This document shows, piece by piece, positions 5,333 through 64,000 of a DNA stretch of 64,000 nucleotides. This DNA is from Dehalococcoidia bacterium UBA7891 (lineage in GTDB: Bacteria > Chloroflexota > Dehalococcoidia > Lucifugimonadales > UBA826). Both the position numbers and the translations under genes were made by a program. Numbering within the stretch: position 1 is the stretch's first letter; the number at the start of each line of letters is the position of its first letter. Under the pieces are notes generated by a model. It did not search any database and had not been told where the DNA came from. It worked only from the letters and a program-made list of their open reading frames with translations. The DNA is taken from assembly GCA_002500485.1 (NCBI GenBank), contig DLRJ01000062.1, forward strand, positions 577 to 64,576, in the 5' to 3' direction.

Positions 5333-5383
5333 TATTGGTTCAAGTCGTTTTTGCGTGCCTGCATATAAAAATATATATGGCTT

Positions 5384-5411
5384 TTGACATGCGCAACCCG
5401 CTTGGTATACT
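5384..5411 (+). promoter_or_regulatory. Candidate sigma70-type promoter for the DUF1800 operon
   Basis: TTGACA (5384-5389), a 16-nt spacer, then TATACT (5406-5411), about 60 nt upstream of ATG 5471. Confidence 0.35.
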
Positions 5412-5470
5412 CATGCCAATAAAAAACTCACATTTCAAGAAAACACACTGAGATCGGGGGAGGCAAAAAT

Positions 5471-9097: not shown

Positions 9098-9117
9098 ATA
9101 ATCCCACATCAGGCAAA

Positions 9118-9151
9118 AAGCCCGCAGGTTAATTTATTAACCTGCGGGCTT
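9118..9151. terminator. Bidirectional terminator hairpin between convergent genes
   Basis: Perfect 15-bp inverted repeat AAGCCCGCAGGTTAA / TTAACCTGCGGGCTT with loop TTTA. The A5 run on its 5' side reads as a T-tract on the - strand. Confidence 0.7.
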
Positions 9152-9155
9152 CTTG

Positions 9156-13448: not shown

Positions 13449-13486
13449 CCTGTGATCGGAGAAGTATCTAGAATTGGAGTGTGATA

Positions 13487-14308
13487 ATGGCTTATACGGA
13501 TCTAGGACTAAAGCAGGACGGTGCAGTCCTTAAGATAACAGTTGATCGACCTGAAGTTTTGAATGCTCAGAGTAGGATAATGCGAGAAGAACTTGATGAT
13601 GCATTTGATAAAGCAGCAGATGATGAATCAGTTAAGGTGGTGATCATTGCAGGGGCAGGGTCTAATTTCTCTGCAGGTCATGACTTGGGTAGCCCTCAAG
13701 AAATGGCTGATCGAGAAAAACGCCCTTATCAACCGGGTACAGCAGGAGAGTACGAAAGGAGTTGGCAACAAAATGTGGCGAACACATTCAGGTGGAGAGA
13801 TTTTCCCAAACCAACAATAGCTCAGGTTCAAGGGGTATGTATTATGGGAGGAATAATTTTGGCTTCATCTTGTGATCTAATTGTTGCCTCGGAGGATGCT
13901 CGCTTTAGTGATAGAACGGTGAGGTGGGGAGGCCCGCACGTCCAATATCTAAGTCTTCCCTACGAAATTGGAGTACGAAAGGCAAAGGAATACCTTTTCA
14001 CAGGGGATTGGATGACTGCTTCTGAAGCCGAAAAAATGGGACTTGTTAATAAAGTTGTGCCTATTGAGCAACTCGAGGAAGAGACTATGAAACTGGCTCA
14101 AAGAATAGCTTTGCAAGATGCCTTTGCTTTGAGATTATCCAAAGCGTCCCTGAATCAAGTACAGGATCAGATGGGCTATCGGAATAGCATTATGTCTGGG
14201 TTTCATAATCACGCCTTAGGACTGTCATACAGGCGTGAGATTTATGATGGTGAAAGAGTCACCTCGATTGATCGCGCCAGAGAGCGTGATAAAAAGTTTG
14301 GTGATTGA
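13487..14308 (+). CDS. Enoyl-CoA hydratase/isomerase (crotonase) family protein
   Basis: LNAQS.., VVIIAGAGSNFSAGHDL, and the GVCIMGG oxyanion-hole region. ATG 13487 follows GGAG at 13476-13479. Confidence 0.85.
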   Translation: MAYTDLGLKQDGAVLKITVDRPEVLNAQSRIMREELDDAFDKAADDESVKVVIIAGAGSNFSAGHDLGSPQEMADREKRPYQPGTAGEYERSWQQNVANTFRWRDFPKPTIAQVQGVCIMGGIILASSCDLIVASEDARFSDRTVRWGGPHVQYLSLPYEIGVRKAKEYLFTGDWMTASEAEKMGLVNKVVPIEQLEEETMKLAQRIALQDAFALRLSKASLNQVQDQMGYRNSIMSGFHNHALGLSYRREIYDGERVTSIDRARERDKKFGD

Positions 14309-14313
14309 ATCAA

Positions 14314-16722
14314 ATGGCGCCATTTTCTAATTTGAAGGTCTTGGATTTGTCGGCTGATTTTGCTGGTAGTTACTGCAGCAAATTGCTTAGTGATTTTGGT
14401 GCTTCCGTCAAAAAGATCATATATGAGGGACGAGAAGATCGTTCTGCTTTATATGGACCGTTCATCAACGAAATTCGAGATCCAAAGTCAAGCGCGATGT
14501 TCCATTATATGAATTACAACAAACAGGTTATTCCAGTATCCAAAGAGACACAGACAATTGAGGAATTGGCACTTTCAGCGGATCTATTAATTGAGGATTT
14601 TTCAAGTGAGGACTTTAATTTAACTGGGTTAGATTTAGAAAATATACGTAAATTAAACCCGGATATTCTAATTTGCTCTTTGACCCCCTTTGGGAGAAAT
14701 ACTAAATGGACAGGAAAACCTTGGAGCGACCTAACTATTCAGGCTTTAACAGGTATGTGCAGTGTAAACGGAGAGCAGGGTAAAGCTCCTTTAAAGGAAC
14801 CAGGTACGGAAAGTGAGTTTATAACTGGAGCAAACGCATTCGTAGCTTCTGTAGCTTCCTTAATCAACCGAGATGTAACAGGGATTGGGCAAGAAGTGAA
14901 TGTATCTATTCTGAAATCTGTTTTACATAGTTATAGTCCATATTTGTTAGGGGCACTTCATACCAGAAACCCTCGGGGACAGCAGCCACAAGGACTCCAT
15001 TTTGGCCTGATACCTTGCAAAGATGGGTATGTATCCCTCAGTGTGCGTCATGAACCTACATGGGAACATATGTGGCTATTTTTTGGGGACCCTGAATTCT
15101 CAGAAAACCCGAAGTTCGATACAGCCGCTAAAAGACGTAATAATGAAGATGAGCTTTCGGAAATTCTTTTGCCAATACTTGCGCAATACTCTCGTAAGGA
15201 TCTCCTTCACGGTTTGAGTCCTCTTCGGATATTGGTTGGCATCGCCAATTCAGTATCAGATTTACTGGAAGATGAGCACCTTAAAACAAGGAATGCTTTT
15301 GTAAGATATGGTAGCGAAGGCAAATCATGGGAAATGCCGGGACCTCCTTTCCAGATGTCTTTAACACCATGGAAATTTGAACCCTTACCTACTTCGGAAG
15401 ATTTTCAAATTTGGGATAACCCAATGAAAGTCACACATAATACCTCTAAAAGTTTAGATACGGGCAATAAAACAAAAGGACCCCTTTCTGGGATGAGAGG
15501 GATTGTGTTAACACAGGCCTGGGCTGGAGCCTACAGCACCCAACTGCTCTCAGATCTAGGCATGGAAATTATTCAGGTTGAATCTATTACCCGGATAGAT
15601 CCTTGGAGAGGAGGGGTTCCTCCAAGGTTGGCAGGCTTGTATCCAGATACTAACCCTGGAGATAATCCTTGGGATAGAAATGCTCTTTACAATGGTGTAA
15701 ATAGAGGTAAGAAAGCTATAACTCTTGACCTAGCCCAGTCAGAAGCAAAAGACGTATTTATGGAACTTGTTTCAATAAGTGATGTCGTAGTAGAGAACTT
15801 TTCCGGTAGAGTAATAAGTAATCTGGGACTGAATTACGAATCTCTTAGGTCGGTTAATCCCTCAATTGTCATGGTTAGAATGCCAACTTATGGGACAAGC
15901 GGACCTTACTCAAATTACCCTGGTAATGGAGGAACTACAGAACCTGTCTCCGGCATGTCATTCCTCATGGGATACCATGATGGACCTCCTATAAATTCTG
16001 GCATAATGCATACTGATGCTTATAGCGGTGTATTAGCATGCGGTGCCGCAATAACTGCCTTGAGGGAAAGGTTAATGTCTGGAGTGGGTCAAGAAGTAGA
16101 TATTTCCCAACAAGAGGTGAGCATGACATTATTGGCCGAATATATTATGGAGGGGTCAATATCAGGGGAATCTCCTGGAAGACAGGGCAATACCAACAGG
16201 GACTACGCTCCTCAAGGATGTTATCTTTCAAAGGATTCTTATTGGATAGCCATTTCTGTGAAAACAGACCGTCAATGGGAATCTTTTTGTAATTCGCTAA
16301 TGCTGGATGATTTGATCACCGATGAAGATTATTCCACCAAAGATGTTAGGAAAATAAATTCGGTTCGGTTGGATCAAGAAATATCAAAGAATATGGCTAA
16401 TTTGGTAGCAAGTGAAGTCGTGGAAAATTTACAGGCTGAGTCAGTGCCATGTGAATTTATTTCCACTTTATTGGAAGCCGCTGAAAATGATGACTTTCAT
16501 CAAATGGAATTATTTGAACAGATATTTCATTTGAAGTCAGGGAATTTCTATTACCCAGTGCCTCCTTGGGATTTTGAAAATAATTCTCGAAAACCTCAAG
16601 AACCAGCCCCAACATTAGGGGAGCATTCTGACGAAATTTTCAGTAGCCTCAATGGATGGTCTGAGAGTGAAATAGCCCGATTTCAGAGCCTTGGATTAAC
16701 TGGTACAGATCCTTTGATTTAA
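14314..16722 (+). CDS. Tandem fusion of two family III CoA-transferase domains in one polypeptide
   Basis: Domain 1 has LKVLDLSADFAGSYCSKLLSDFGASV; its catalytic-position context is TESEFITG (Glu, codon 14815-14817). Domain 2 begins after ~aa 390 with GPLSGMRGIVLTQAWAGAYSTQLLSDLGMEIIQVE. It has MHTDAYSG (Asp) and C-terminal APTLGEHSDEIF. Confidence 0.8.
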   Translation: MAPFSNLKVLDLSADFAGSYCSKLLSDFGASVKKIIYEGREDRSALYGPFINEIRDPKSSAMFHYMNYNKQVIPVSKETQTIEELALSADLLIEDFSSEDFNLTGLDLENIRKLNPDILICSLTPFGRNTKWTGKPWSDLTIQALTGMCSVNGEQGKAPLKEPGTESEFITGANAFVASVASLINRDVTGIGQEVNVSILKSVLHSYSPYLLGALHTRNPRGQQPQGLHFGLIPCKDGYVSLSVRHEPTWEHMWLFFGDPEFSENPKFDTAAKRRNNEDELSEILLPILAQYSRKDLLHGLSPLRILVGIANSVSDLLEDEHLKTRNAFVRYGSEGKSWEMPGPPFQMSLTPWKFEPLPTSEDFQIWDNPMKVTHNTSKSLDTGNKTKGPLSGMRGIVLTQAWAGAYSTQLLSDLGMEIIQVESITRIDPWRGGVPPRLAGLYPDTNPGDNPWDRNALYNGVNRGKKAITLDLAQSEAKDVFMELVSISDVVVENFSGRVISNLGLNYESLRSVNPSIVMVRMPTYGTSGPYSNYPGNGGTTEPVSGMSFLMGYHDGPPINSGIMHTDAYSGVLACGAAITALRERLMSGVGQEVDISQQEVSMTLLAEYIMEGSISGESPGRQGNTNRDYAPQGCYLSKDSYWIAISVKTDRQWESFCNSLMLDDLITDEDYSTKDVRKINSVRLDQEISKNMANLVASEVVENLQAESVPCEFISTLLEAAENDDFHQMELFEQIFHLKSGNFYYPVPPWDFENNSRKPQEPAPTLGEHSDEIFSSLNGWSESEIARFQSLGLTGTDPLI

Positions 16723-16736
16723 AATACTTAAGTGAA

Positions 16737-17942
16737 ATGATGACTCAACATAAAATAAATACACATCTGACTGACGTAATTGCTAAGGCTTCAGAGATTT
16801 CTGAAATTACTGATGAAGAGGCACTTTTACTTTCTCGCTACTCAGAAGATCATCTGGGTGATTTGTGTGGTGCTGCAGCAAAGATTAGAAATCATGGAAA
16901 AGGGACAACGGTTACTTTTTCCCCAAAAGTTTTTATCCCTCTGACCAGGTTATGCCGCGATTACTGCGGATACTGCACGTTTAGAATAGACCCAGACCAA
17001 GCGCAAAGTCTTTACATGAGTGCAGTAGAGGTGCTTGATGTGGCCAAACAAGGGGAAAATCTAGGCTGTACCGAAGCATTATTTACCCTCGGAGAAAGGC
17101 CAGAACAGAAGTACCCGGAAGCGAAGGAATGGCTTTCAAATAATGGTTATGACAGTACTCTTGATTATCTGGGTGCCATGACTGAACTTGTAGTTAAAGA
17201 GACCAGGCTTTTGCCTCACGCGAATCCCGGTACCATGACTCACAGAGAGCTAAATGTTTTAAAAGACTCTAATCCCTCTACTGGCATAATGCTGGAAAGT
17301 ACCAGCGAACTTTTATATCAAAAAGGCGGACCTCATGAATTTGCCCCTAGTAAAAGACCTATTGTTAGATTGAAGACAATTTCAATAGCAGGTGAATTAA
17401 GAATTCCATTCACTACCGGCCTTCTTATTGGGATAGGTGAAACGATGTTGGACAGAATAGAATCCCTACTGGAAATCAGAAGCCTACACCGAAAATATAA
17501 TCATATACAGGAAACAATAATTCAGAACTTCAGGGCAAAACCTGAGACCCCCATGGCAGAATCTCCAGATGCTGAAACACAAGAAATGCTCTGGACGGTC
17601 GCTGCGGCTCGTATTATTTTGGGGCCTCAAGCTAATATACAAGTGCCGCCAAACCTCAGTTCCGAGAATTACGAGATGTATTTGGCTGCAGGTATAAATG
17701 ATTGGGGTGGTGTTTCTCCTTTGACAATCGATTATGTTAATCCCGAAGCACCCTGGCCTCTCATAACCAATTTGAAATCAAAAACAGAGTCAGCGGGATT
17801 TGAATTGCGACCAAGGTTAGCTGTATACCCAGAGTACTTTCTTGATACTACTGAATACTTACCGGTAGACTTGTTGACGAAGGTACGAGAATTGGCTGAT
17901 GATGAAGGATATGTAAAGGAAGGTATTAACAGATATGTCTGA
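16737..17942 (+). CDS. cofG: FO synthase subunit 1 (7,8-didemethyl-8-hydroxy-5-deazariboflavin synthase, CofG), radical SAM
   Basis: CxxxCxxC cluster motif CRDYCGYCTF. Size and pairing with a second radical-SAM paralogue fit, and there is an 8-nt overlap with the next gene. Confidence 0.8.
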   Translation: MMTQHKINTHLTDVIAKASEISEITDEEALLLSRYSEDHLGDLCGAAAKIRNHGKGTTVTFSPKVFIPLTRLCRDYCGYCTFRIDPDQAQSLYMSAVEVLDVAKQGENLGCTEALFTLGERPEQKYPEAKEWLSNNGYDSTLDYLGAMTELVVKETRLLPHANPGTMTHRELNVLKDSNPSTGIMLESTSELLYQKGGPHEFAPSKRPIVRLKTISIAGELRIPFTTGLLIGIGETMLDRIESLLEIRSLHRKYNHIQETIIQNFRAKPETPMAESPDAETQEMLWTVAAARIILGPQANIQVPPNLSSENYEMYLAAGINDWGGVSPLTIDYVNPEAPWPLITNLKSKTESAGFELRPRLAVYPEYFLDTTEYLPVDLLTKVRELADDEGYVKEGINRYV

Positions 17943-19245
17943 TATTGAGGCACATGACATGGACATGGATTTTTCGGGCCTGCTGGGGTCAATAGATCCA
18001 GATATTTCCCGCGTCTTACGTGCGGCTATTTCTGGTGAAGATATTTCAGCATCGGACGCCTGCCTGCTTCTGGATTCTAATGGGTTAGAGTACAACGCTA
18101 CCGTGTTGGTTGCCGATGTTTTGCGTAGAAGGACTGTGGGAGATGTCGTCACATATGTTGTAAATAGAAACATTAATTTTACTAATGTATGTATAAAGAG
18201 ATGTGGATTTTGCGCATTTAGCAGAGATTTCAGAGAAGAACAAGGTTATCTATTACCAGTGGAGGAAATAGTCCGTCGCTCGAAAGAAGCGTGGGATTAT
18301 GGGGCTACTGAGGTATGTGTACAGGCAGGCCTACCACCTCAAATGGAAGGCGATTTATACATTCGACTATGTGAGGCGATAAAAGCTGAACTTCCTGATA
18401 TTCACATCCATGGATTTTCCCCAGAAGAGGTTCTTTATGGATCAATCCGATCCAAGACATCTATAAGGCAACACCTTAGTGATTTGAAAGACGCAGGTGT
18501 TGGAAGTTTACCCGGCACCTCAGCAGAGATATTGGATCAGGCCTTGAGGGATAAAATATCACCGGGTCGTATAACTAAAGATCAATGGATCGAGGTCATA
18601 ACCACAGCCCATGATCTGGGCATACAAACTACATCTACTGTGATGTTTGGGCACGTCGAGACAAATCTGCAAATTGCTGAACATATCGATATTATTCGGA
18701 ACATACAGATGGAAACGGGTGGGTTCACAGAATTCGTACCATTGAGTTTTGTGAATTCTGAGGCCCCTATGTTTCTTAAAGGGCTAATCCCTAATGTTAG
18801 GACTGGACCCACCGGTATGGATGTGGTGAAGGTTCATGCTGTTGCGAGGATTATGTTGAATAATTGGATACCAAACATTCAGGCCTCTTGGGTTAAAGAG
18901 GGAGACAGAATCTCTCAATTACTTCTTACCGCAGGGGTAAATGATTTAGGTGGCACTTTGATTAACGAAAGTATTTCTACATCCGCAGGGGCGCAACATG
19001 GCCAGCTGATGAAGCCTTCACAGTTCAGAGATATGATACGGGATGCAGGAAGGTTGCCGGCAGAAAGATTCACAAATTATAGTTTGAGAAAGGTATATGA
19101 TAAATCGGATAACGAGAAAGACCCATTAGATCTATTGGAAGATAACGTAGAGGAAATATTTGGCTCGTACAATAAACTTATTGGGATGGAAAATTTCCGA
19201 TTCGAACACCCACGTAAGGCCGCAGAAAGGACTGCTAGTGTATGA
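17935..19245 (+). CDS. cofH: FO synthase subunit 2 (CofH), radical SAM
   Basis: CIKRCGFCAF motif. The start ATG overlaps the cofG stop (ATGTCTGA, 17935-17942). Confidence 0.8.
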   Translation: MSDIEAHDMDMDFSGLLGSIDPDISRVLRAAISGEDISASDACLLLDSNGLEYNATVLVADVLRRRTVGDVVTYVVNRNINFTNVCIKRCGFCAFSRDFREEQGYLLPVEEIVRRSKEAWDYGATEVCVQAGLPPQMEGDLYIRLCEAIKAELPDIHIHGFSPEEVLYGSIRSKTSIRQHLSDLKDAGVGSLPGTSAEILDQALRDKISPGRITKDQWIEVITTAHDLGIQTTSTVMFGHVETNLQIAEHIDIIRNIQMETGGFTEFVPLSFVNSEAPMFLKGLIPNVRTGPTGMDVVKVHAVARIMLNNWIPNIQASWVKEGDRISQLLLTAGVNDLGGTLINESISTSAGAQHGQLMKPSQFRDMIRDAGRLPAERFTNYSLRKVYDKSDNEKDPLDLLEDNVEEIFGSYNKLIGMENFRFEHPRKAAERTASV

Positions 19246-53376: not shown

Positions 53377-54519
53377 GTGCCAAAACCTACAAAAATCGAA
53401 AAACTGGAAACATTTCTTTGGGATAGATGGTTGTTGTTGAAGATACATTGTGAGGACGGTACTGTTGGCATCGGCGAGGGAGGAGTGCATGGGTGGCAGC
53501 GACCCACGAAAACAATGATAGAAACTATGGAACCCTATCTGCTAGGCCAGGACCCACACAAAATTGAACATCATTATCAGTGGCTATATCGATCTTCCCA
53601 TTTCATGGGGTCGGTGGTTCAAGGAGCCTTGTCAGCCATAGACATAGCGCTATGGGACATAAAAGGAAAGAGATTAGGCGTGCCAATTTATGATCTTATG
53701 GGGGGTAAAACGAGGGATAGTGTTCGTTGCTATATGCATGTTGGATCAGGAGAGGGTGGTAGTGCGGAAGATTTGGCAAATGATGCTTTAAGTGCCGTTA
53801 AGAAAGGATATACAGCTGTAAGATTTTCGCCTTTCTCAACTGATTATTATCTACACAAATCATATAGTGAATGGGCAGATGAAGCAGTTAATAGGGTAGG
53901 GGCGGTGCGTGAAATGGTCGGACCTGATGTTGACGTATGTGTTGAAATACATCGCCAAATGAATCCTGCGGAAAGCATTTCCTTAGGTAGGAGATTGGAG
54001 CAATTCAACCCATTTTTTTATGAAGATCCGATGCTTCCTGATAGCCCAAAGATAATGGGTGAAATAGCTGCCAAATGTAATATTCCTATTGCAACTGGAG
54101 AAAGATTCACAACAATTTTTGAGTATCAGCAGCTTTTGGAATCCAACGCTGTTTCGTACGTTCGCCCAGATCTGTGCCTGTGTGGCGGACTCAGCGGATC
54201 GAAAAAAGTCGCTGCCATGGCCGAAGCTAACCACGTAAAAGTTATTCCCCACAATCCATTGTCTCCAGTAAGTACTGCGGCCTGTGTTCAGTTGGATGCC
54301 TGCATTCCAAATTTCGCCCTGCAAGAATACACAGGTGAAGATCAGCCGCCCAAGAGCGAACTTTTTGTGGAATCACTGGAGATGATAGACGGGTACCTGA
54401 AAGTACCTGAAGGTCCAGGTCTAGGAATTGAAATAAATGAAGAAGCCTTGTCGATGCCTGAAAATCCCAAGGTGCTGGACACTCCTATTGGCTTTGATGG
54501 TTCGGTACAAGATAGATAG
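53377..54519 (+). CDS. Enolase-superfamily dehydratase (D-galactonate/D-mannonate dehydratase-like)
   Basis: DGTVGIGEGG, GALSAIDIALWDIKGKRLGVPIYDLMGG, FFYEDP and ATGERF. GTG start after AAAGGAGAGAA. Confidence 0.8.
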   Translation: MPKPTKIEKLETFLWDRWLLLKIHCEDGTVGIGEGGVHGWQRPTKTMIETMEPYLLGQDPHKIEHHYQWLYRSSHFMGSVVQGALSAIDIALWDIKGKRLGVPIYDLMGGKTRDSVRCYMHVGSGEGGSAEDLANDALSAVKKGYTAVRFSPFSTDYYLHKSYSEWADEAVNRVGAVREMVGPDVDVCVEIHRQMNPAESISLGRRLEQFNPFFYEDPMLPDSPKIMGEIAAKCNIPIATGERFTTIFEYQQLLESNAVSYVRPDLCLCGGLSGSKKVAAMAEANHVKVIPHNPLSPVSTAACVQLDACIPNFALQEYTGEDQPPKSELFVESLEMIDGYLKVPEGPGLGIEINEEALSMPENPKVLDTPIGFDGSVQDR

Positions 54520-54537: not shown

Positions 54538-55992
54538 TTAACTTTGATTGAAATAAACGACGTCATCAGCGAAAGGTTTGTCGCTGTCTTTTATCATGCC
54601 AATTTGACCTCTACCCATAATTGAGTTTTTCCTACCGTCTACACTAGGATCAGTATATTTGTCATACCAACTCTCGAGTTGTTCTAATAATTTTTCCTTA
54701 ATCTCTTGATGAGCGTCTGATCCAAATAAATTGATTTCTTCATCGGGATCATTCTCTAAATCATATAACTCATTGTCCCCAAATTGGTACCTGTGAACGT
54801 ATTTCCATTTATGTGTACGAATCATTCTAGTTGGTCCGTATTCGTCAAGAACATAGACGGGTTTATCTGACCCGAAATCTCTTCCTTCCAGCAGATTAAC
54901 AAAACTTCTCCCTGGAAGATTATGGGTATTTTTTTGCTCTAGGCCTACATAGTCCAATAGGGTAGGACTGAAATCGTATTGGCTTAATAGTTCGGTGCAG
55001 TCTACATTTTGGGGAACATGACCAGGTCTTGAAACAAGGGTCGGAATTTTAACAGCGGTATCATACATATTAGGTGGATATGTTCCGTTACCTTTTCCCC
55101 AAATGCCGTGATGTCCCATATTCATTCCGTTATCAGCAGTGAATATGACAAGAGTGTTGTCTCTGAGATCGTTTTCTTCAAGCCAGTCTATTATTCGCCC
55201 TATATTTCTATCCATTTCTTCTATGGCAGTGAAATATCCGCTTAAGGCAGTCTTCCTACCTTCCTGGTCGCTTCCAATAGTGGCAGCTCCCGCCTCTTTG
55301 TCTAGTTGGTGCGGGTGTATTGGAAGATCAGGTGTAGATTCCAATCGGCTTTCGTTGTAAAAGGCGTCAAATTTTTCTTGTGGATGGTTTTCACGAGTCC
55401 AAGGTGCGTGAGGGGCCGTGTAATGTACGTTAAGAGAGAAAGGAGAATCAGAATCTATTTGTTTTTCAAGAAACGAAAGGGCATTATCAGTAATTATGTC
55501 TGTTACATATTCGGCTGGTCGATAAAGTTCGCCGTTTTCAATCATAGGTGGCTTGTAATAAGGGCCTCCACCAGAAGCATGAACGTTCCAGTACTCAAAA
55601 CCAAACTGCGGTAATCGAGCGTTTCCGAGGTGCCATTTCCCGCTTAACCCGCAGTTGTAACCGTTTTCTGACAATTGTTCTATATATGAGGTTCGACCTT
55701 CCATATACGTTATTTCGGTTCCGTCTGTGTTAATAAATTTGGAGTTTCCTTTTCTTAAAAAGTCTTGAACTCCATGTTGGGAAGGAATCTCACCCGTTAA
55801 TATTGAAGCGCGCGCTGGGGAACAGACAGGAGAAGCGCAGAAAAAATTTTGAAAATTTATTCCCGTCTCAGCTAGGCGATCCAGATTTGGTGTGGACAGT
55901 TCACCGTTACCTGCACACCCCATCGCCCAGGCCCCCTGGTCGTCGCTCAATATGAATAATATGTTTGGCTTATCAGTGTTCTGGCTTGCCAT
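54538..55992 (-). CDS. Cys-type sulfatase (arylsulfatase family), no signal peptide
   Basis: ILFILSDDQG and the formylglycine signature CSPARASILTG. The start ATG directly abuts the stop of the upstream gene (TAAATG). Confidence 0.85.
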   Translation of the reverse strand: MASQNTDKPNILFILSDDQGAWAMGCAGNGELSTPNLDRLAETGINFQNFFCASPVCSPARASILTGEIPSQHGVQDFLRKGNSKFINTDGTEITYMEGRTSYIEQLSENGYNCGLSGKWHLGNARLPQFGFEYWNVHASGGGPYYKPPMIENGELYRPAEYVTDIITDNALSFLEKQIDSDSPFSLNVHYTAPHAPWTRENHPQEKFDAFYNESRLESTPDLPIHPHQLDKEAGAATIGSDQEGRKTALSGYFTAIEEMDRNIGRIIDWLEENDLRDNTLVIFTADNGMNMGHHGIWGKGNGTYPPNMYDTAVKIPTLVSRPGHVPQNVDCTELLSQYDFSPTLLDYVGLEQKNTHNLPGRSFVNLLEGRDFGSDKPVYVLDEYGPTRMIRTHKWKYVHRYQFGDNELYDLENDPDEEINLFGSDAHQEIKEKLLEQLESWYDKYTDPSVDGRKNSIMGRGQIGMIKDSDKPFADDVVYFNQS

Positions 55993-57063
55993 TTAATAAC
56001 TCTCTTTTATGTATACAGTGGCTTCCTTGTCAGATGACTCATACATTGCCAGGGCGACCTCCAACACTTGAGATGAAAAATCTATATCCATGTCTAATGA
56101 TTCGTTTTCTGTGATCGCATCTATGAATGCCTTTGCCGCTCCCTTAAATCCCTCAATCCAATCAGCAGGGACGCTGTATGAGATGGTCTCGTTACCTTTA
56201 ACCAATATAACCGGAGGCATGTCTAGTAGTTCGCCCGTACATCTCGTGACCCAGATTGTGCCTTTCGGACCTATAATCTCGAAAAATTCGTCAGCACTGT
56301 AATATTTCCCCTTAATGGGCATTTCATTTGCAGAAGAATAATCAATGGTTATTAAACAATCTTTGTCTTTTACTTTCATAACAGCGGCACTTGGAGTATC
56401 AGCAAGAAAATCATCGGTTCTTGTTACCATGCTTGTTACTTTTTCAACGCCTCCAACCCAAGATATAGCCGTAGCATATTTGTGCCAACCATCGTCATAG
56501 AGCATTCCGCCTGGATTTTTTGAAGGATCCCTTCTCCATACGTACGCATCTTTTTCAGGCCTAATCATGGTTTCCATACCCAGTCCCCTGATAGTTCTGA
56601 TTCTAACCAGAGAAGGAGTTCCAATGGCACCATTCTCTATAAGTTCCTTCGCCTTTGTTATAGGAGGATAATAAAGAAAGTTTTCAGTCACTCTAAAGAT
56701 TTTTTCATTATTTTCAACAGCTTTGCGAATCTGTTTTGCCTCATCCATAGAGGTTGCTATAGGCTTTTGACATGACACATGTTTTCCTGCATTGAGACCA
56801 GAAATAATCTGCGATGCATGAAGATGGGTTGGCGATAAAAGTTCAACAGCATCTACGGCCTCATCGGCCAAAACACTGTCGTAGTCAGTATAAATACGAG
56901 GGTTTATTTTCCACTCTTTTGCCTTTGCAATTGCTCTATCTTCATTAACGTCACATAAGGCGACTATCTCGCAATTTGGATGTTCCAAATACCCGGGCAC
57001 ATTGAGTTGAGAAATTGTTCCGCAACCGACTATAGCTAATCCGACTTTAGACATAACACCCAC
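55993..57063 (-). CDS. Gfo/Idh/MocA-family NAD(P)-dependent oxidoreductase
   Basis: Rossmann N-terminus VGLAIVGCGTISQ, the EKP-like segment CQKPIA, and a typical C-terminal alpha/beta domain. Confidence 0.8.
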   Translation of the reverse strand: MGVMSKVGLAIVGCGTISQLNVPGYLEHPNCEIVALCDVNEDRAIAKAKEWKINPRIYTDYDSVLADEAVDAVELLSPTHLHASQIISGLNAGKHVSCQKPIATSMDEAKQIRKAVENNEKIFRVTENFLYYPPITKAKELIENGAIGTPSLVRIRTIRGLGMETMIRPEKDAYVWRRDPSKNPGGMLYDDGWHKYATAISWVGGVEKVTSMVTRTDDFLADTPSAAVMKVKDKDCLITIDYSSANEMPIKGKYYSADEFFEIIGPKGTIWVTRCTGELLDMPPVILVKGNETISYSVPADWIEGFKGAAKAFIDAITENESLDMDIDFSSQVLEVALAMYESSDKEATVYIKESY

Positions 57064-57150
57064 CTTTCATTTAGTTGGATTATTTTTTACTCTTTGTGTC
57101 ATATTACTATTTATGGCAACAGCATTTAAATTTAACTAAGGTGGCGAATT

Positions 57151-57558
57151 ATGGTTTTCATAAGCGAAGAGGCTGACGTATTTCTAAATCAAACCCAAAT
57201 AGCCGTTATTAGTACCGTAGGGGCCGATTATCGTCCGCATTCGGTTCCGATATGGTATGGATGGGATGGTCATTGTGCCTCTATGTTTACGGGCACTAAT
57301 ACATTGAAATGGAAAAATTTATCTCATAATCCATACGCTACTTTATGTGTAGATTTCAGGGAACCTCCATACAAATCGGTGGTTATACATGGAAAAGTTG
57401 AAGAAATAAAAATACCGCTTCAGGATTTTGTAAAAAAATTGGCTATACGATATTACGGAGAAGAGGAGGGTAGGGAATTTGCTGATCTATACCCTGATGA
57501 TAAAAAAGACGTCGTGATATTTAAACTAATACCAGACAAAATTGTTGAGGAGTTATAA
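57151..57558 (+). CDS. Pyridoxamine 5'-phosphate oxidase-fold protein (PPOX class, possibly F420-dependent)
   Basis: A 135-aa protein. AVISTVGADYRPHSVPIWYGWDG is typical of the split-barrel FMN/F420-binding family. Confidence 0.65.
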   Translation: MVFISEEADVFLNQTQIAVISTVGADYRPHSVPIWYGWDGHCASMFTGTNTLKWKNLSHNPYATLCVDFREPPYKSVVIHGKVEEIKIPLQDFVKKLAIRYYGEEEGREFADLYPDDKKDVVIFKLIPDKIVEEL

Positions 57559-57879
57559 GGGTTGCCCTAAAAGCTGCTCGGCATCTCTCCTAGAACCGCG
57601 ACAAGTTTCATATATGTGCTTTTTCTTCCCTTGTAAATCTGGAGGGCCTAGGTATCTCACTTCCCAGGCGTTGTTTCATCTAAATGTGATGTGGATAGTT
57701 TCCACTGTTGGTGTTTGCCGGACCACCCGGTACACTCTATCTCTCTAGCGCGTCTGCAAAATGTCGAAAATGCTCTTTACTGGAGCGGTAGGATGAGCCA
57801 TTACCCCTGGTTCTGTGCGGAACAGTGGTGGCCACTTATAGGGACCTTATTCCCTGACCTTTCAGCCGAGTGATCAGTG
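57559..57879. other. Unusually long, GC-enriched non-coding spacer between convergent genes (candidate ncRNA or decayed gene)
   Basis: Five consecutive hand-counted 60-nt blocks are 50, 47, 48, 48 and 53% GC in a ~40% GC window. Only Cys/Trp-rich, non-protein-like ORFs are present. Confidence 0.3.
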
Positions 57880-59073
57880 CTAGGTGAATACTACTTCAGA
57901 GTCGACCATTTTTTTGATTTCATCGGCAGAGTAGCCAATTTCTCTTAGGATATTTTCAGAGTGTGCCCCTGGAATTGTCCCAAGGTTTCGGACCGCCCCT
58001 GGAGTATCTGTAAGCTTTGAACCAAACCCTACTTGAGTTATGACTGCTCCATCCACGCTACCTGCCTCAATGAACATGTTTCTAGCTTTCATGTGTGGAT
58101 CATCTAGAACCTCATTGAACTCATAGACAGGTGCTGCCGCCACATCTTCGGCTTCCCTGAATATATCCCACCATTCATCTCTCTTTTTGGTTTTAAACGT
58201 GGCTTCTAACTCACGCATTATCAATTGGTATTCATGCTCATTGTGCTGGCTGCTGGCAAATTGTTCCAAATTTAGTGTGGAGCAAAGATTTTTCCAGAAA
58301 TTAGGTTCGATACAGCCAAGGCTAATGTATTTACCATCCTGACATTCAAAAACATTGTAATAAGGGACACCACCATTTAATGTCATCTGACCAGGCTTTG
58401 GGATTAGCCCAGAATTAAAATATTCTCCTGATATGGCTGATAACAGGTAGGTGACGCCGTCTGACATTGAGGTGTCTATTTTTTGTCCTCTGCCGGTGTT
58501 TGTTCTGGAAAAAAGAGCACAAACGATTGAATAAGCCGCATTCATACCTCCGGCTGCGAAATCTGCAATAAGGTTATATGGGATTGAAGGCGTACCATTT
58601 TTGCTGCCAATTAATCCTAAAGCCCCACCCACGGAGATATAGTTCACATCATGTCCCACTAAATCCTTGTATGGTCCAGTCTGCCCATAGCCGGATATAG
58701 AACAATAAATTATTGAAGGATTAATCTCTTTAATGGTTTCATAATTACAACCCAGTCTGGTTACTACCTCAGGTCTGAATCCTTCAATAAAAACATCGGC
58801 TTTTTGGCAAAGTTGATGCAATATTTTTATTCCATCTTTTTCCTTTAAATCTAATACTATGCTTCTTTTATTTCGGTTTAATGGGTTGCTTGCCGCTTTT
58901 TTGCGGGTTTCTGCGTCATTAATGATTTTGGAAGCTATTATTCTGGATGTAGGAGGTGCTTCAACTTTTATAACGTCGGCCCCCATATCACCAAGCATCA
59001 TCGAACAAAATGGTCCTGGGGCCATTCTGCTTAAATCAACGATTTTTACTCCATCTAATGCGCCTTTCGTCAT
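57880..59073 (-). CDS. Family III CoA-transferase superfamily, alpha-methylacyl-CoA-racemase-like
   Basis: VKIVDLSRMAPGPFCSMMLGDMGADVIKVE. GHDVNYISVGGAL plus NLIADFAAGG match the MCR His/Asp pair context. The ATG overlaps the upstream stop by 1 nt (TGATG). Confidence 0.8.
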   Translation of the reverse strand: MTKGALDGVKIVDLSRMAPGPFCSMMLGDMGADVIKVEAPPTSRIIASKIINDAETRKKAASNPLNRNKRSIVLDLKEKDGIKILHQLCQKADVFIEGFRPEVVTRLGCNYETIKEINPSIIYCSISGYGQTGPYKDLVGHDVNYISVGGALGLIGSKNGTPSIPYNLIADFAAGGMNAAYSIVCALFSRTNTGRGQKIDTSMSDGVTYLLSAISGEYFNSGLIPKPGQMTLNGGVPYYNVFECQDGKYISLGCIEPNFWKNLCSTLNLEQFASSQHNEHEYQLIMRELEATFKTKKRDEWWDIFREAEDVAAAPVYEFNEVLDDPHMKARNMFIEAGSVDGAVITQVGFGSKLTDTPGAVRNLGTIPGAHSENILREIGYSADEIKKMVDSEVVFT

Positions 59074-60329
59074 CAAAATGATTGCTCCAATATACCTTCA
59101 TTTAATAAATTCGCAGCTTCTGAGGGACCCATAGAAAGAATTTCATCAAGGATTTCCAAATTGTGTTCACCAACCATGGCCTGGGCTCGAGTTAGACTCC
59201 CTGGCGTTTTTGACAGTGTGAACTGCAGTCCGTCGTATGGCATCGGACCAACCTCTGAGTGTTCAAGCCATTGAAAAAAGTCCGTGTGCTTGAGTTGAGG
59301 ATCCTCCCACATATCAGACTGACTTTGTACCATTCCACATGGGATTTCGTGGCTTTGTAGCAAATTCATAATTTGTCTAGCATCCTTCTGTAAAGTCCAG
59401 TTCGAGATTAAATTGTCTATTTGATCTTTGTTCAATTTCCGCTCTGCCAAATTTTGATTAGATATCGCCTCTGGTAAATCCAAAACTTTTGAAAATTCAG
59501 TCCATTGGGATTCAGATTCTATGGCTATTGCAACCCATGATTCCTCTGTGTCGGTGAGACCCCTTTCCTTATCTAGACACTGAAATATCCCATGCGGCGA
59601 CATCTCTTCGTCCTCGTTTCCCATCCTACCTAGAATGAAGCCATCCTCGTTGTATTTCATGATATGTGGAGCTAGAAAGTGCATCGCCCCCTCATACTGT
59701 GAAAGGTCAATATGTTGTCCTTTTCCGTAACGATCCCGGTAATCAAGTGCTGCCACTATTGACCCAAAAGCTACAGGAGGGTTGAGGAAGTCAGAATATG
59801 CCCCATAAGGTCCAGCGGGGCCCCTATCAGGCCACCCTGTGATTTCGTAAAACCCAGCCATTGCTCCCGCCAGTTGCCCAAATCCTGCGTAATTGTTATG
59901 TGGCCCATATTGGCCCATTAGGCAGGTACTAAAATAAATCACATCTGGGGCTATTCTTTTAACAGAAAGGTAGTCAAGACCCCACGATTTCATAACGCGT
60001 GGTGTGAAACTTTCTGCTATCACGTCAGGTTGCCACTGAACTATGATATCTTTTATTAGGTCTACGGATTTCGGGATTGATAAATTGACTCCCAGATTCC
60101 TTTTGCTTGAGTTGTAATTTCCACTAAATTGACTTCTATTTATGCCTGGTATTGCGTCCTTAAAAGGCGGTGCCCCTCTTAGTACGTCAGGTCTACTTAC
60201 AGACTCTATTTTTATTACATCTGCCCCGTGGTCGGCAAAGTATTTTGTTGTGATGGGGCCGACACCAACCCATGTAAAATCTAAAACTTTTAGACCGTCA
60301 AAAAGAAGTTCTGATGTGTTGTTTTGCAC
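59073..60329 (-). CDS. Family III CoA-transferase (Asp-type)
   Basis: LKVLDFTWVGVGPITTKYFADHGADVIKIE. Catalytic context AYSDFLNP. The GTG start overlaps the upstream TAG by 1 nt. Confidence 0.8.
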   Translation of the reverse strand: MQNNTSELLFDGLKVLDFTWVGVGPITTKYFADHGADVIKIESVSRPDVLRGAPPFKDAIPGINRSQFSGNYNSSKRNLGVNLSIPKSVDLIKDIIVQWQPDVIAESFTPRVMKSWGLDYLSVKRIAPDVIYFSTCLMGQYGPHNNYAGFGQLAGAMAGFYEITGWPDRGPAGPYGAYSDFLNPPVAFGSIVAALDYRDRYGKGQHIDLSQYEGAMHFLAPHIMKYNEDGFILGRMGNEDEEMSPHGIFQCLDKERGLTDTEESWVAIAIESESQWTEFSKVLDLPEAISNQNLAERKLNKDQIDNLISNWTLQKDARQIMNLLQSHEIPCGMVQSQSDMWEDPQLKHTDFFQWLEHSEVGPMPYDGLQFTLSKTPGSLTRAQAMVGEHNLEILDEILSMGPSEAANLLNEGILEQSF

Positions 60330-61606
60330 TATATAATCCCCCTCTTCCTTAACGCTTCGATTTCGGATTTGCCTATGCCAAGACTTTTGAATATTTCTTC
60401 ATTATGAGATCCAACACTGGGGGAGGGAGAGTAAACTTTTAGAGGAGTTTCAGACATCTTCATATAGGGTCCTAGATGAGTTATATCCTTACCAAATTCC
60501 GGATGATAAACATCAATCCAAAATGATCTTGCCTCTAATTGGGGGCTTTTTCTAATATCTTCAACGGTATTGCAAGGTGCCACCAAAAGCCCAGCAGATA
60601 GAGCCCTTTCAAAAATTTCCATTTTTGTTTTTATTGAAAGGAAACTCTCTATAGCTTTTTCAACTTTTTTGAACTCAGAGGCTTCTTTACCATTCGGGTC
60701 ACTATCAGGTTTAAGGTTCCATTTATCAATATTAAAACCTAGGATCTCTTTTTCGATCTCAATTTCTTCTGACATCCACCTAATAAACCCATCAAGTGTT
60801 TTGGCCTGCGCATTCATACTTACATATCCATCAGCACATCTAAATACATGTCTTGCATCTATAGGACCTCTTTTTCTGAATGCCCCCGCCCTGGTTACAT
60901 CAGTGCCGTGTAATTGAGGAAATGGCGTGGCGTTCATTAAAGTCCACATCACCGCTATTTGTTCCGATACATCTACATGTTGTCCAGTTTTACTGTTTCT
61001 ACTGTGCCTTAAGGCAGCTACTGTTGCTCCAAAAGCCTGGGATCCAGCAACTAATTCGGCCTGTGGAAAGCTTATTCTTACGGGTGGACGATCCTCGTCA
61101 CCACTTACAAAAGGCATTCCGCCCATTGAACTGGTTATTAGATCCGTGGATATGAAACCAGCATATGGTCCGGTTGAGCCGAAAGGCGTCATAGAGGTAT
61201 GCACTAATTGGGGATTTATTTTTGCAAGGGTTTCAAATCCTATATTTAATGAATCAAGATATCCAGGCTGAAACGATTCTAATATTGCATCACTTTTGTT
61301 CACCAACTTAAGAAATATTTGCCTTCCTTCATCGGTATCAAGTAAAAGGGAAATACCTTTTTTGTTGGAGTTATATGATGCCCAATATAGGCTTCTGGGC
61401 TTACCATCTGAATTTTTTGTAAAGGGTCCTCTGAGACGGGTTTGACTGCCACCAGGGGGCTCTATTTTGATGACTTCCGCTCCCATATCTCCCAAGAGCC
61501 GACCGCAAATATTATGGCCTCCTTCGGCCAGATCTAAAATGGTATAAGGCAGAAGCCTTTCTTGAGTTGGAGGACATAAAGATTCCATTTCGTCGGAGAC
61601 CACCAT
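60329..61606 (-). CDS. Family III CoA-transferase paralogue with Glu at the catalytic-Asp position
   Basis: YTILDLAEGGHNICGRLLGDMGAEVIKIE. The catalytic-position context is FPQAELVAGS (Glu codon GAA = + strand 61055-61057). C-terminal VGSHNEEIF. Confidence 0.8.
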   Translation of the reverse strand: MVVSDEMESLCPPTQERLLPYTILDLAEGGHNICGRLLGDMGAEVIKIEPPGGSQTRLRGPFTKNSDGKPRSLYWASYNSNKKGISLLLDTDEGRQIFLKLVNKSDAILESFQPGYLDSLNIGFETLAKINPQLVHTSMTPFGSTGPYAGFISTDLITSSMGGMPFVSGDEDRPPVRISFPQAELVAGSQAFGATVAALRHSRNSKTGQHVDVSEQIAVMWTLMNATPFPQLHGTDVTRAGAFRKRGPIDARHVFRCADGYVSMNAQAKTLDGFIRWMSEEIEIEKEILGFNIDKWNLKPDSDPNGKEASEFKKVEKAIESFLSIKTKMEIFERALSAGLLVAPCNTVEDIRKSPQLEARSFWIDVYHPEFGKDITHLGPYMKMSETPLKVYSPSPSVGSHNEEIFKSLGIGKSEIEALRKRGII

Positions 61607-61625
61607 ATGTGATTTAGATATCTAA

Positions 61626-62813
61626 CTAAGCCCTCGGTAAACCTAAACCTCGATCTGCAATGATGTTTCTTTGGATTTCTGAAGTACCGGCAGCTATTGT
61701 GGATGAAAAAGAGCTCAAATACATTTTCTGGACGGCCCCTTCCAAGGGTGATAGATCTGATTCATGTGATAACAGGCCTTTCATATCTATTATGTTCATT
61801 GCCGTATTTGCTACTCTTTGTACCAACTCAGTTCCAAATAGTTTAGACATGGAAGCCTCAGCATTTGGGACCATACCGTTGCTCTGCATCCAAGCGACCT
61901 TATATGACATAGACCTTGAAACTTCTGTTTCAATATGTCTTTCAGCAAGTCTATTTCGAACTAATTGGTTTTCAGAAAGCAGGTTGCCATTTTTATGTGC
62001 TGACTTTACATAGACTGTCAGAGATTCAAGTATTCTTCTTGCATTGGCTGAATAGCCAACTCCCGACCTTTCGAAGTCTAAAGCCACCGCAAGGGTATAC
62101 CAACCGCGATTTTCTTCTCCCACTAGGTTTTTGGAAGGTATTCTGACATCTTCAAAGAAAACCTCATTGAATTCATGAGAGCCGGCCATGTTGTATATTG
62201 GCCTTACCGTAACTCCAGGTGATTTCATATCCACCATGAATAAACTAATACCCCTGTGTTTTGGGGCTTCAGGATTAGTTCTTGCCGCTAGCCACCCAAA
62301 GTCTGCGATATGAGCGGAGCTGGTCCATATTTTTGAGCCATTGATTACGTAGTCGTCACCATCTTTTTGTGCTTGTGTTTGGAGTGAGGCTAAATCTGAT
62401 CCTGACCCAGGTTCACTATAAAGAGTGCACCAATAGGCATCGCCATTTCCAATAGGAGGTAGATGTTCCTTTCTTTGTTCATGGGTACCGGCAATCATCA
62501 AGGTAGGCCCGACCCAGCTAATAGCACCTGTTCCTAGATCTGTTCCCGGAACATCCTGATAAGTCATCTCTTCTCGGTATATCAATTGCTCCATTATTGA
62601 GCGACCCTGACCCCCATATTCTTCAGGCCATGCCATGGTCAACCAACCCTTTTCTGCCAGCTTTTTGGCCATGGATTTGGTAAACGGTAAATTCTCCTTA
62701 GAAAAATGACTTTCTGGTGATAAAGAATTCCAGTCTTCAGGCAATTCTTTATCTAAAAACTCCAGTAATTCACTTCTGAAATCTTCTTCTTTTTCTGTAA
62801 ATGTATACTGCAT
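61626..62813 (-). CDS. Acyl-CoA dehydrogenase
   Basis: ACAD N/M/C domain layout and YWCTLYSEPGSGSD. The C-terminus reads AAGTSEIQRNII, lacking the MCAD-type YEGT glutamate, as in IVD/LCAD-type enzymes. Confidence 0.85.
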   Translation of the reverse strand: MQYTFTEKEEDFRSELLEFLDKELPEDWNSLSPESHFSKENLPFTKSMAKKLAEKGWLTMAWPEEYGGQGRSIMEQLIYREEMTYQDVPGTDLGTGAISWVGPTLMIAGTHEQRKEHLPPIGNGDAYWCTLYSEPGSGSDLASLQTQAQKDGDDYVINGSKIWTSSAHIADFGWLAARTNPEAPKHRGISLFMVDMKSPGVTVRPIYNMAGSHEFNEVFFEDVRIPSKNLVGEENRGWYTLAVALDFERSGVGYSANARRILESLTVYVKSAHKNGNLLSENQLVRNRLAERHIETEVSRSMSYKVAWMQSNGMVPNAEASMSKLFGTELVQRVANTAMNIIDMKGLLSHESDLSPLEGAVQKMYLSSFSSTIAAGTSEIQRNIIADRGLGLPRA

Positions 62814-62904
62814 ATACCACTATTTTTGGTAAGTTCTAAATGCTCTTATTCTCGCATCCTACTACACATAGATGGTTCATAGAAACAATGCTCGTTTGAC
62901 GAAA

Positions 62905-63693
62905 TTAAAGTTTTCCAGGCATACCTCCATCAACATTTATTATCTCTCCTGTGATAAATCTGGAATCGTTTGATACTAGGAATAAAACGGTATTGGCTAC
63001 GTCATCGGGGTAACCTGCACCTTCTAATATTTGGATAAAATCGAAGGCCCCTTTGAGGGAATGATTTCCACCGCCGACATCGGTCAAAGGAGTTATGATT
63101 TGACCAGGTCTTACGCCGTTTACTCTAATGTTGTGTTGGCCACCCATACCAGCTGCATATCTGGTAAATGCATCAACACCTGCTTTTGCTGCGTAATAGG
63201 AGGACGAAGGCCCGCGGCCTACCAGATCGTACATGTTTTTACTAAACCCTCTTTGAGCTGCTAGTGACGACATGTTTACGATTCGCCCGTTTCCTGATTC
63301 GATCAAATGGGACCATGCAGCACGACATACGTAGAATGTCCCATTCAAATTTACCGCAATGACCCTGTCCCAACCTTCATCTGTTTCGTCGGGGAAGTTA
63401 CCTTTATCACCACCTCCTGCATTGTTAAAGAGAACACTTATTTTTCCGTATGTTGAGACAACATTTTCGACTACTTCATCTACTTGGCCTCTTTCCGCTA
63501 CATCACATTGAAAAAATGTGGCTTCTCCACCGGAAGCTTTTATAGCAGATTCGACTTCTTTTCCTTCTTTCTCTCTTCTAGCTAAGATCGCAACCTTCGC
63601 CCCTTCTTTTGCAAACAGGTGGGCAGTTGCTTCGCCTATCCCGCTGTTTCCCCCTGTCACTATAGCTACATCGCCGTCCAGTTTGTTTGCCAT
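62905..63693 (-). CDS. SDR-family oxidoreductase
   Basis: TGGNSGIGEA, NNAG and YYAAKAG (YxxxK). The ATG at 63693 is 6 nt after AAGGAG. The alternative ATG 63711 would overlap the upstream stop. Confidence 0.85.
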   Translation of the reverse strand: MANKLDGDVAIVTGGNSGIGEATAHLFAKEGAKVAILARREKEGKEVESAIKASGGEATFFQCDVAERGQVDEVVENVVSTYGKISVLFNNAGGGDKGNFPDETDEGWDRVIAVNLNGTFYVCRAAWSHLIESGNGRIVNMSSLAAQRGFSKNMYDLVGRGPSSSYYAAKAGVDAFTRYAAGMGGQHNIRVNGVRPGQIITPLTDVGGGNHSLKGAFDFIQILEGAGYPDDVANTVLFLVSNDSRFITGEIINVDGGMPGKL

Positions 63694-63707
63694 CACTATC
63701 TCCTTAT

Positions 63708-64000
63708 TCATTTAAGTACTCCCGAAACATATAAGTCATCTATTTTTGATTCAGCTACTCCTAAAAGGTCCCCTAAAATGTATTCAGTGTGCTCTCCTAG
63801 TAGCGGGGCCCTATCAACTTTGGGTGTGACACCAGACATTGAAATCGTCTCACCGTGAACCTTCATTGAGTCGATTTCTGGGTGTGGCATATCGATAACG
63901 TGAGTGTCAGTGAAACTTTTATCCCGTTTAAGTAAGTCTTCAGTATCTTGAACCACGCCAGCGGGTACACCGTGGGATTGTAGTAGGTTCATTACCTCGT
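63708..64000 (-). CDS. Family III CoA-transferase, C-terminal part only (5' end beyond window edge)
   Basis: The frame is open to nt 64000. The C-terminal hallmark APLLGEHTEYILGDLLG is present. Confidence 0.7.
   Translation of the reverse strand, partial: EVMNLLQSHGVPAGVVQDTEDLLKRDKSFTDTHVIDMPHPEIDSMKVHGETISMSGVTPKVDRAPLLGEHTEYILGDLLGVAESKIDDLYVSGVLK

Follow-up and report, generated by a model that had tools for sequence, protein, structure and literature searches.

Side-by-side and fused BbsE/BbsF-like family III CoA-transferase genes in a SAR202 bacterium

RESULTS

Family III CoA-transferase genes of the window

The window, that is, the whole stretch of DNA analyzed here, comprises 64,000 nucleotides (nt) of contig DLRJ01000062.1 (GenBank assembly GCA_002500485.1) from Dehalococcoidia bacterium UBA7891. 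At its end, the minus strand carries a string of genes encoding, in order of transcription, the C-terminal part of a family III coenzyme A (CoA)-transferase, a short-chain dehydrogenase/reductase (SDR), an acyl-CoA dehydrogenase (ACAD), two complete family III CoA-transferases, and a third family III member resembling α-methylacyl-CoA racemase (MCR) (Table 1). We focus on the two complete transferase genes, which carry a glutamate (Glu-type) and an aspartate (Asp-type), respectively, at the position of the catalytic Asp of the family, and on a fused gene elsewhere in the window that joins one unit of each kind in a single chain.

The gene order given for this string by a first-pass annotation stood, and all of its open reading frames (ORFs) were recovered in place by ORF calling and Pfam searches. 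The start of the string at the window edge did not hold, since the operon runs on in a longer public contig, L087 (L007 to L089 are labels of the compared loci and contigs; P0016 to P0056 are labels of database fusion proteins). The two 1-nt overlaps that had been noted (TAGTG and TGATG) are present: the Glu-type and Asp-type genes meet at TAG/GTG (positions 60331-60327), and the Asp-type and racemase-like genes meet at TGA/ATG (59075-59071). The racemase-like gene may start at TTG 59076 (398 amino acids [aa]) or at its second codon, ATG 59073 (397 aa). The fused gene consists of an N half, a variable linker of ∼45 aa, and a C half, and its start is overlapped by 4 nt by a hydratase/isomerase gene. 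PF02515 (CoA_transf_3) covered the three complete genes over their full length (E values of ∼1e-75 to 1e-98) and matched both fused halves (1e-75 or better). Pfam and phmmer agreed with the earlier count of eight family III domains in the window: 2898..4136, 10407..11603, the two fused halves, the three tandem genes, and the edge fragment. None of the CoA-transferases, nor the ACAD or the SDR, received an equivalog-level name from NCBIfam. A promoter and terminator scan of 57000..64000 returned counts at or below chance and was uninformative on the limits of the operon.

Table 1. Genes of the tandem CoA-transferase string and of the fused locus (best PDB matches are given with their E values)
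Feature	Position	Strand	Properties
α-Methylacyl-CoA racemase-like family III member	57880..59076	-	397/398 aa; PF02515; best PDB match M. tuberculosis MCR
BbsF-like (Asp-type) family III CoA-transferase subunit, predicted	59073..60329	-	418 aa, GTG start; PF02515 3e-82; 9fn0_B 3e-64
BbsE-like (Glu-type) family III CoA-transferase subunit, predicted	60329..61606	-	425 aa; PF02515 3e-75; 9fn0_A 7e-50
ChsE4/FadE26-like ACAD	61626..62813	-	395 aa; three ACAD Pfam domains; 4x28_A 1e-74
SDR	62905..63711	-	268 aa; adh_short_C2 4e-61; adh_short 5e-52
Second BbsF-like (Asp-type) subunit, C-terminal 97 codons, cut by the window edge	63708..64000	-	Frame-2 translation
Fused BbsE-like + BbsF-like CoA-transferase	14305..16722	+	805 aa; two PF02515 domains
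Enoyl-CoA hydratase/isomerase family gene	13481..14308	+	ECH_1 2.5e-44; NCBIfam subfamily PRK08290, 293.6 bits (cut-off, 280)

One unit of each pair lacks the catalytic aspartate

In the Glu-type protein, Glu184 (codon GAA, 61055-61057) lies in the motif FPQAELVAGS. It aligned with the catalytic Asp of the solved homodimeric members 4ed9 and YfdE, and in a multiple alignment this column was Asp in the five other window domains whose region falls inside the window. The edge fragment stops short of the column; its full-length form in L087 has Asp there. Asp180 of the Asp-type protein (codon 59790-59792) is the predicted nucleophile. The fused gene repeats the pattern, with Glu171 (TESEFIT, codon 14815-14817) in the N half and Asp571 (MHTDAYS, codon 16015-16017) in the C half. 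The catalytic Asp (Asp169 of Frc/CaiB) is missing from the Glu-type unit and from the fused N half and is present in the Asp-type protein, the fused C half, and the other window copies. These alignments agree with the first-pass annotation, which had placed a Glu at the catalytic column of the split and the fused gene alike and the Glu unit 5' of the Asp unit at both places.

The two units match different chains of BbsEF

When compared with all PDB sequences, the Glu-type protein found chain A of structure 9fn0 as its best match, which is that of BbsEF, the succinyl-CoA:(R)-benzylsuccinate CoA-transferase; the next match was at 6e-37, and chain B followed at 5e-28. The Asp-type protein found chain B as its best match, chain A reaching 5e-17. 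The halves of the fused protein behaved alike, the N half matching 9fn0_A best and the C half 9fn0_B. Some Glu-type homologues are also named "BbsE subunit" by the Joint Genome Institute (JGI) pipeline. BbsEF (9fn0, 9fol, and 9fun) resembles the window pair in that it consists of two paralogous family III subunits, only one of which has the catalytic Asp. The residue of 9fn0_B opposite Asp180 is D178, and the title of entry 9fol reads "BbsEF, D178-CoA adduct"; the residue of 9fn0_A opposite Glu184 is a Tyr. According to the PDB, the BbsEF structures were released in December 2025. A literature search found no paper describing them, and we used the titles of the PDB entries instead. Since Asp is present in one chain only of this closest solved relative, the latter is a heteromer with its nucleophile on one subunit. 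Judged by sequence, the Glu-type/Asp-type pair appears to have the architecture of the BbsEF type: the genes lie side by side, each product is nearest to a different chain, and one Asp is present.

The paired units are adjacent or fused in many genomes

Among the best 120 database homologues of the Glu-type protein, 17 were longer than 470 aa. In 16 of these 17, the N end was a Glu-type orthologue and the C end an orthologue of the Asp-type protein; compared with the latter, the C halves reached scores as high as 568 bits. Because direct orthologues of the window pair are fused elsewhere, this is a Rosetta-stone fusion of exactly this pair, beyond the family level. Each of the database fusions of Glu-type and Asp-type orthologues (P0016 to P0056) lacked one of its ends, also where the contig was long, which was likely caused by long-read frameshifts or wrong gene calls. 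Complete fusions of 800 to 900 aa were present in loci L012, L014, L018, and L029.

We also scanned genomes, one per species, called ORFs in the best 80 loci listed, and classed the family III units of these loci as BbsE-like (E-class), BbsF-like (F-class), or canonical by their best match in a reference panel. The scanned loci were mostly those of distant relatives (38% identity or less), and ∼25 canonical single-gene loci provided a contrast set. Among the loci listed, to which all counts of E-class, F-class, and canonical units given here refer, 55 of the 60 BbsE-like units had a BbsF-like unit either adjacent on the same strand or fused to them (27 E-then-F within 300 nt, 6 F-then-E, and 22 fused). 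The canonical Asp-bearing relatives were single genes, often beside an enoyl-CoA hydratase gene. The translational coupling of the pair by a 1-nt overlap was conserved in relatives. The arrangement occurred in Chloroflexota, Binatia, Acidobacteriota, Desulfobacterota, Actinomycetota, and others, and the survey of conserved adjacency or fusion that had been suggested for this pair found both conserved across representative genomes.

Several E/F pairs or fusions were found inside single 21-kb loci of Dehalococcoidia (L011, L019, and L054): in L019, a split pair accompanies two fusions of ∼890 aa, and in L054, two fusions of ∼800 aa lie next to each other. The presence of several pairs or fusions per locus indicates that the pair has been duplicated repeatedly as a unit.

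The tandem genes could be viewed differently, as encoding three independent homodimers with different substrates, their adjacency stemming from the SAR202 paralogue expansion and the Glu-type protein being an inactive or diverged homodimer. Most characterized family III enzymes are homodimeric, the window alone holds eight family III domains, and dozens of CaiB/BaiF paralogues occur per SAR202 genome (PMC5395668). However, independent homodimers fit poorly with the fusion of the orthologous pair in other genomes, with the rarity of E-class units without an F-class neighbor whereas canonical members stand alone, with the conserved 1-nt coupling, and with the heteromeric nature of the closest solved structure. 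We regard this view as very unlikely. We favor instead, with a probability of about 0.75, that the products of the Glu-type and Asp-type genes are the partner subunits of a single BbsE/BbsF-type heteromeric family III CoA-transferase and that the fused gene encodes the same two units in one chain. The heterodimer that the first-pass annotation had predicted by Rosetta-stone reasoning would then form, as supported by the fusions of orthologues, by adjacency or fusion in 55 of 60 cases, and by the best matches to two different BbsEF chains.

The glutamate does not define a class

The same annotation had further treated Glu-type units as a recurring functional kind and had suggested testing whether the two such units of the window are sister sequences. 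Across 100 homologues of the Glu-type protein with a single domain, the column was most often Y (48) or E (32), followed by A (5), S (4), F (3), Q and W (2 each), and D, G, and L (1 each). It was mostly Tyr in orthologues of the fused N half, where S, H, C, A, N, D, and E were also seen; in the fused family at 41 to 94% identity, E, Q, A, or D filled the N column, and an invariant Asp (MHTDA) the C column. In the genome scan, few E-class units had Asp at this column (4 of 60; Y, W, F, E, S, H, A, Q, or still other residues were seen in this class), but nearly all F-class (58 of 59) and canonical (40 of 42) units did. In a neighbor-joining tree, which recovered E-like and F-like clades, the nearest relatives of the Glu-type gene were its own SAR202 orthologues, and the fused N half, on a long branch, was placed with a Leu-bearing neighbor. 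The two Glu units are not sisters in this tree, and a recurring Glu-type class does not emerge from these data, as the column is degenerate throughout the BbsE-like group and the other pair of the same operon is Tyr/Asp. The first-pass annotation had itself named non-monophyletic Glu-type sequences as a refuting outcome; by that standard its Glu-specific part is refuted, and its adjacency and fusion part stands. The picture is that Glu is one tolerated replacement that has arisen more than once.

In L031, L037, and L050, a few E-class units have retained Asp next to an F-class partner that has it as well. Such Asp/Asp pairs may be intermediates with both sites still active.

We also considered whether the E-like unit is a decaying pseudogene and rejected this, because it is conserved as well as its partner: the N and C halves of the fusion were equally conserved at every distance (the linker was not), and E-class units keep most of the family scaffold residues.

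Two other readings would give the Glu a chemical role. In the first, it is a working nucleophile that defines a Glu-type class, so that the heterodimer has a Glu-based and an Asp-based site. The Glu falls precisely on the catalytic column, 20 of the 28 homologues at 42 to 62% identity retain it (motif PQAEL), most fused relatives at ≥51% identity have it as well, and glutamate is the nucleophile of family I CoA-transferases. However, 36% of the columns were at least as conserved among the homologues at 42 to 62% identity, modestly distant orthologues have Y, S, Q, W, or A instead, the window's own Glu units do not group as sisters, and Tyr takes this place in BbsE and in the sister pair of the same operon. 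An Asp169Glu mutant of formyl-CoA transferase was reportedly made and crystallized as an inactive variant; a PDB entry, 1vgr, exists, and a literature search found nothing on the activity of this mutant. Such a Glu-based site seems to us distinctly unlikely. In the second reading, the E-like subunit would bring new chemistry to the heterodimer as a lyase, isomerase, or epimerase with Glu as a general base. Purifying selection on E-like units overall is in line with this proposal, the fold can host acid/base catalysis at this very position, as seen in MCR, and the tandem family III protein DddD has lyase activity (PMC7174347; PMC5395668). Yet the column mixes the chemically unrelated residues Y, W, F, A, and S even among close relatives, a variability that poorly fits a general base; moreover, the equivalent of the MCR His is not part of the E-like motif, and the operon already has a dedicated MCR-like gene. 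We hold new chemistry of this kind to be highly improbable and retain the reading of the E-like unit as the partner subunit of a heteromeric CoA-transferase.

The operon extends beyond the window

The exact SDR protein of the window is encoded on public contigs, among them L087 (GCA_001757045.1, contig MDTC01155563.1, 108 kb), which matches the window along 9 kb with 99.97% identity and then runs past the window edge. There, L087:4129-10004 holds three further upstream genes. The first encodes a 1,131-aa single-chain biotin carboxylase-biotin carboxyl carrier protein (BCCP)-carboxyltransferase whose best PDB match is the long-chain acyl-CoA carboxylase (LCC) 4rcn (1,030 bits). The second encodes a 419-aa BbsE-like protein with Tyr in the catalytic column (GEQAYHM), and the third (8784-10004) encodes a 406-aa BbsF-like protein with Asp, the C terminus of which is identical to the fragment at the window edge. 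The operon thus has eight genes: the LCC-like carboxylase, a Tyr-type/Asp-type pair, the SDR, the ACAD, the Glu-type/Asp-type pair, and the MCR-like gene. The description of this gene set as "beta-oxidation-like" is only partly apt, as the operon contains no hydratase or thiolase gene.

The string ACAD-E-F-MCR-like was kept at 58 to 83% identity in other SAR202 contigs, and the MCR-like gene lay 3' of the E/F pair in L081 to L089 and in L007. In the relatives at 83% identity (L084:6140-8581 and L086:1721-4162), we found a 483-aa biotin-carboxylase gene and a 50-aa ORF, and the first E/F pair was absent, which looks like a deletion of the carboxyltransferase half together with two transferase genes. 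In L081 (58% identity), genes for DUF35 (zf-ChsH2/OB) and thiolase-like proteins lie at 4907-6679, ∼2 kb upstream of the string. They resemble BbsAB or the Ltp2/ChsH2 pair of steroid side-chain degradation. Downstream of the string, this contig has two additional ACAD genes and an AcetylCoA_hyd_C gene.

Racemase-like and ACAD genes of the operon

The last gene of the string had been described as racemase-like, and this was confirmed by its best PDB matches, the M. tuberculosis MCR entries 1x74 and 8rmw (∼5e-67 to 7e-67, versus 6e-49 for the best transferase). The equivalents of all four catalytic residues of MCR (His126, Asp127, Asp156, and Glu241) are present as His142, Asp143, Asp172, and Glu257, and its motifs GHDVNY, ADFAAGG, and CIEPNF align with GHDINY, GDFGGG, and AIEPQF of 1x74. 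By these sequence features, the gene product is a genuine α-methylacyl-CoA racemase homologue.

Glu248 of the ACAD (LDFER) aligned with the NHER motif (E247) of 4x28_A, and AAGT stands in place of YEGT. The ACAD indeed lacks the YEGT glutamate and has its Glu at the position seen in isovaleryl-CoA dehydrogenase (IVD) and ChsE4, as noted before; ChsE4 and PimC are closer to it than IVD. Its best NCBIfam match was the pimC large subunit, below the cut-off.

The fused protein and other genes of the window

The AlphaFold2 model of the 805-aa fusion is one confident body (mean predicted local distance difference test score of 86; predicted template modeling score of 0.92), with disorder only in the linker at residues 372 to 388. 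Its top Foldseek matches were chains D and B of 9fn0. Beside the fusions of orthologues and the conserved adjacency, we count this model as a further argument for the heteromer reading. Directly 3' of the fused gene, two radical-SAM-like ORFs (401 and 436 aa) occupy 16737..19245 on the plus strand; judged by eye, they look like CofG/CofH (FO synthase, F420 biosynthesis). The canonical Asp-bearing family III gene at 10407..11603 (minus strand) adjoins a gene of the enolase superfamily (MR_MLE; 9156..10337). Another MR_MLE gene (53377..54519, plus strand) lies beside two genes for thiamine pyrophosphate (TPP) enzymes, and a sulfatase gene is found at 54538..55992.

DISCUSSION

If the two chains are subunits of one enzyme, they would form an interlocked family III dimer in which Asp180 of the F-like chain (Asp571 of the fused protein) would take the acyl group as a mixed anhydride, and the same Asp would then carry CoA as an aspartyl thioester. 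The E-like chain would be an obligatory structural and substrate-shaping partner that is under selection and has no nucleophile, its Glu being one of many residues tolerated at a former catalytic position. Most likely, the operon serves to activate and begin oxidizing 2-methyl-branched or otherwise substituted carboxylic acids without ATP in a SAR202 bacterium. The CoA-transferases would activate these acids at no ATP cost, the MCR-like enzyme would set the configuration at C2 for the ACAD, and a blocked position would be dealt with by the carboxylase.

Several observations weigh against this interpretation or narrow it. The window pair shares only ∼30 to 35% identity with BbsE/BbsF, and its operon contains no genes for benzylsuccinate synthase, the BbsH hydratase, the BbsAB thiolase, or a glycyl-radical enzyme. 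With neither bss nor bbs context in the operon, the substrate is certainly not benzylsuccinate, and the pair is not BbsEF proper. The substrate class given above was guessed from the presence of a ChsE4-like ACAD, an MCR-like protein, and an LCC-like carboxylase, none of which reached an NCBIfam equivalog cut-off. Bootstrap values of the deep nodes of the neighbor-joining tree were only 8 to 20 of 100; owing to these low values, we used the tree solely for the non-sister status of the two Glu units, and the E and F classes rest more on best-hit patterns and the catalytic column than on a robust tree. The Glu is also fairly well kept close to the window protein (20/28, see above), and it may have a role in this nearest clade. 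That it is a working nucleophile or general base in the PQAEL-keeping SAR202 clade, giving two chemically distinct active sites (Asp and Glu), is unlikely; were it so, one interlocked enzyme could couple two acyl transfers, or a transfer and a second reaction.

SAR202 bacteria are abundant in the deep ocean. The expansion of CaiB/BaiF paralogues in this group has been described, and a role in channeling unusual carboxylic acids to CoA-dependent oxidation was proposed for these proteins (Landry et al. 2017, PMC5395668). Our analysis suggests that many SAR202 "paralogues" are pairs of a catalytic subunit and a partner without the nucleophile, split or fused. As the paralogues come in pairs, gene counts would overstate the number of independent SAR202 enzymes, which should be roughly halved. 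The pairing also points to the genes that need to be coexpressed for biochemistry, and it offers a rule for annotation, namely, a degenerate catalytic column together with an Asp-bearing neighbor. The unit is not new in kind, as it has precedents in the heteromer BbsEF and in the tandem fusion DddD. The spread of the pairing of a degenerate and an Asp-bearing unit across many phyla may be underappreciated, and with an arrangement this widespread, BbsEF would be the characterized tip of a large and mostly unstudied group.

Comparison with known systems

Two heteromeric family III CoA-transferases offer a frame for the window pair: BbsEF, which has been known since 2001, and SmtAB, the succinyl-CoA:malate CoA-transferase of Chloroflexus. 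As with the window pair, an ACAD and an SDR are encoded alongside BbsEF in the bbs operon. The two systems differ in the residue at the catalytic column of the E subunit, which is Glu in the BbsE-like unit of the window and Tyr in BbsE. Unlike the BbsEF setting, the window operon adds an MCR-like epimerase and an LCC-like carboxylase, and its host is a SAR202 bacterium of the oxic ocean. BbsEF is an α2β2 heteromer, and the window pair is predicted to be heteromeric as well.

The homodimeric family III enzymes (Frc/YfdW, CaiB, YfdE, and SUGCT) share the fold and the Pfam family with the window proteins, and the Asp-type subunit keeps their catalytic Asp and scaffold. In these enzymes the chains and active sites are identical, whereas in the window pair the nucleophile is gone from one chain.

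DddD, a single-chain CoA-transferase/lyase acting on dimethylsulfoniopropionate (DMSP), has tandem CaiB-like domains at residues 1 to 416 and 439 to 821 (PMC7174347), and it was the best hit of some SAR202 transferases (Landry et al. 2017, PMC5395668). The NCBIfam scan gave no DddD-named match for the window proteins, and no comparison was made with the sequence or a model of DddD. The fused protein resembles DddD in having two CaiB-like domains in one chain; unlike dddD, its gene adjoins an enoyl-CoA hydratase gene and putative F420 biosynthesis genes, not a DMSP operon.

Compared with MCR, the racemase-like protein carries 14 inserted residues near position 45 and a C terminus longer by ∼40 residues, and its gene, unlike that of MCR, is translationally coupled to a CoA-transferase pair. 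The ACAD shares the position of its catalytic Glu with ChsE4 (FadE26) of the α2β2 enzyme ChsE4-ChsE5. In contrast to that enzyme, no gene for a ChsE5-like β subunit adjoins it, and the operon has a single ACAD.

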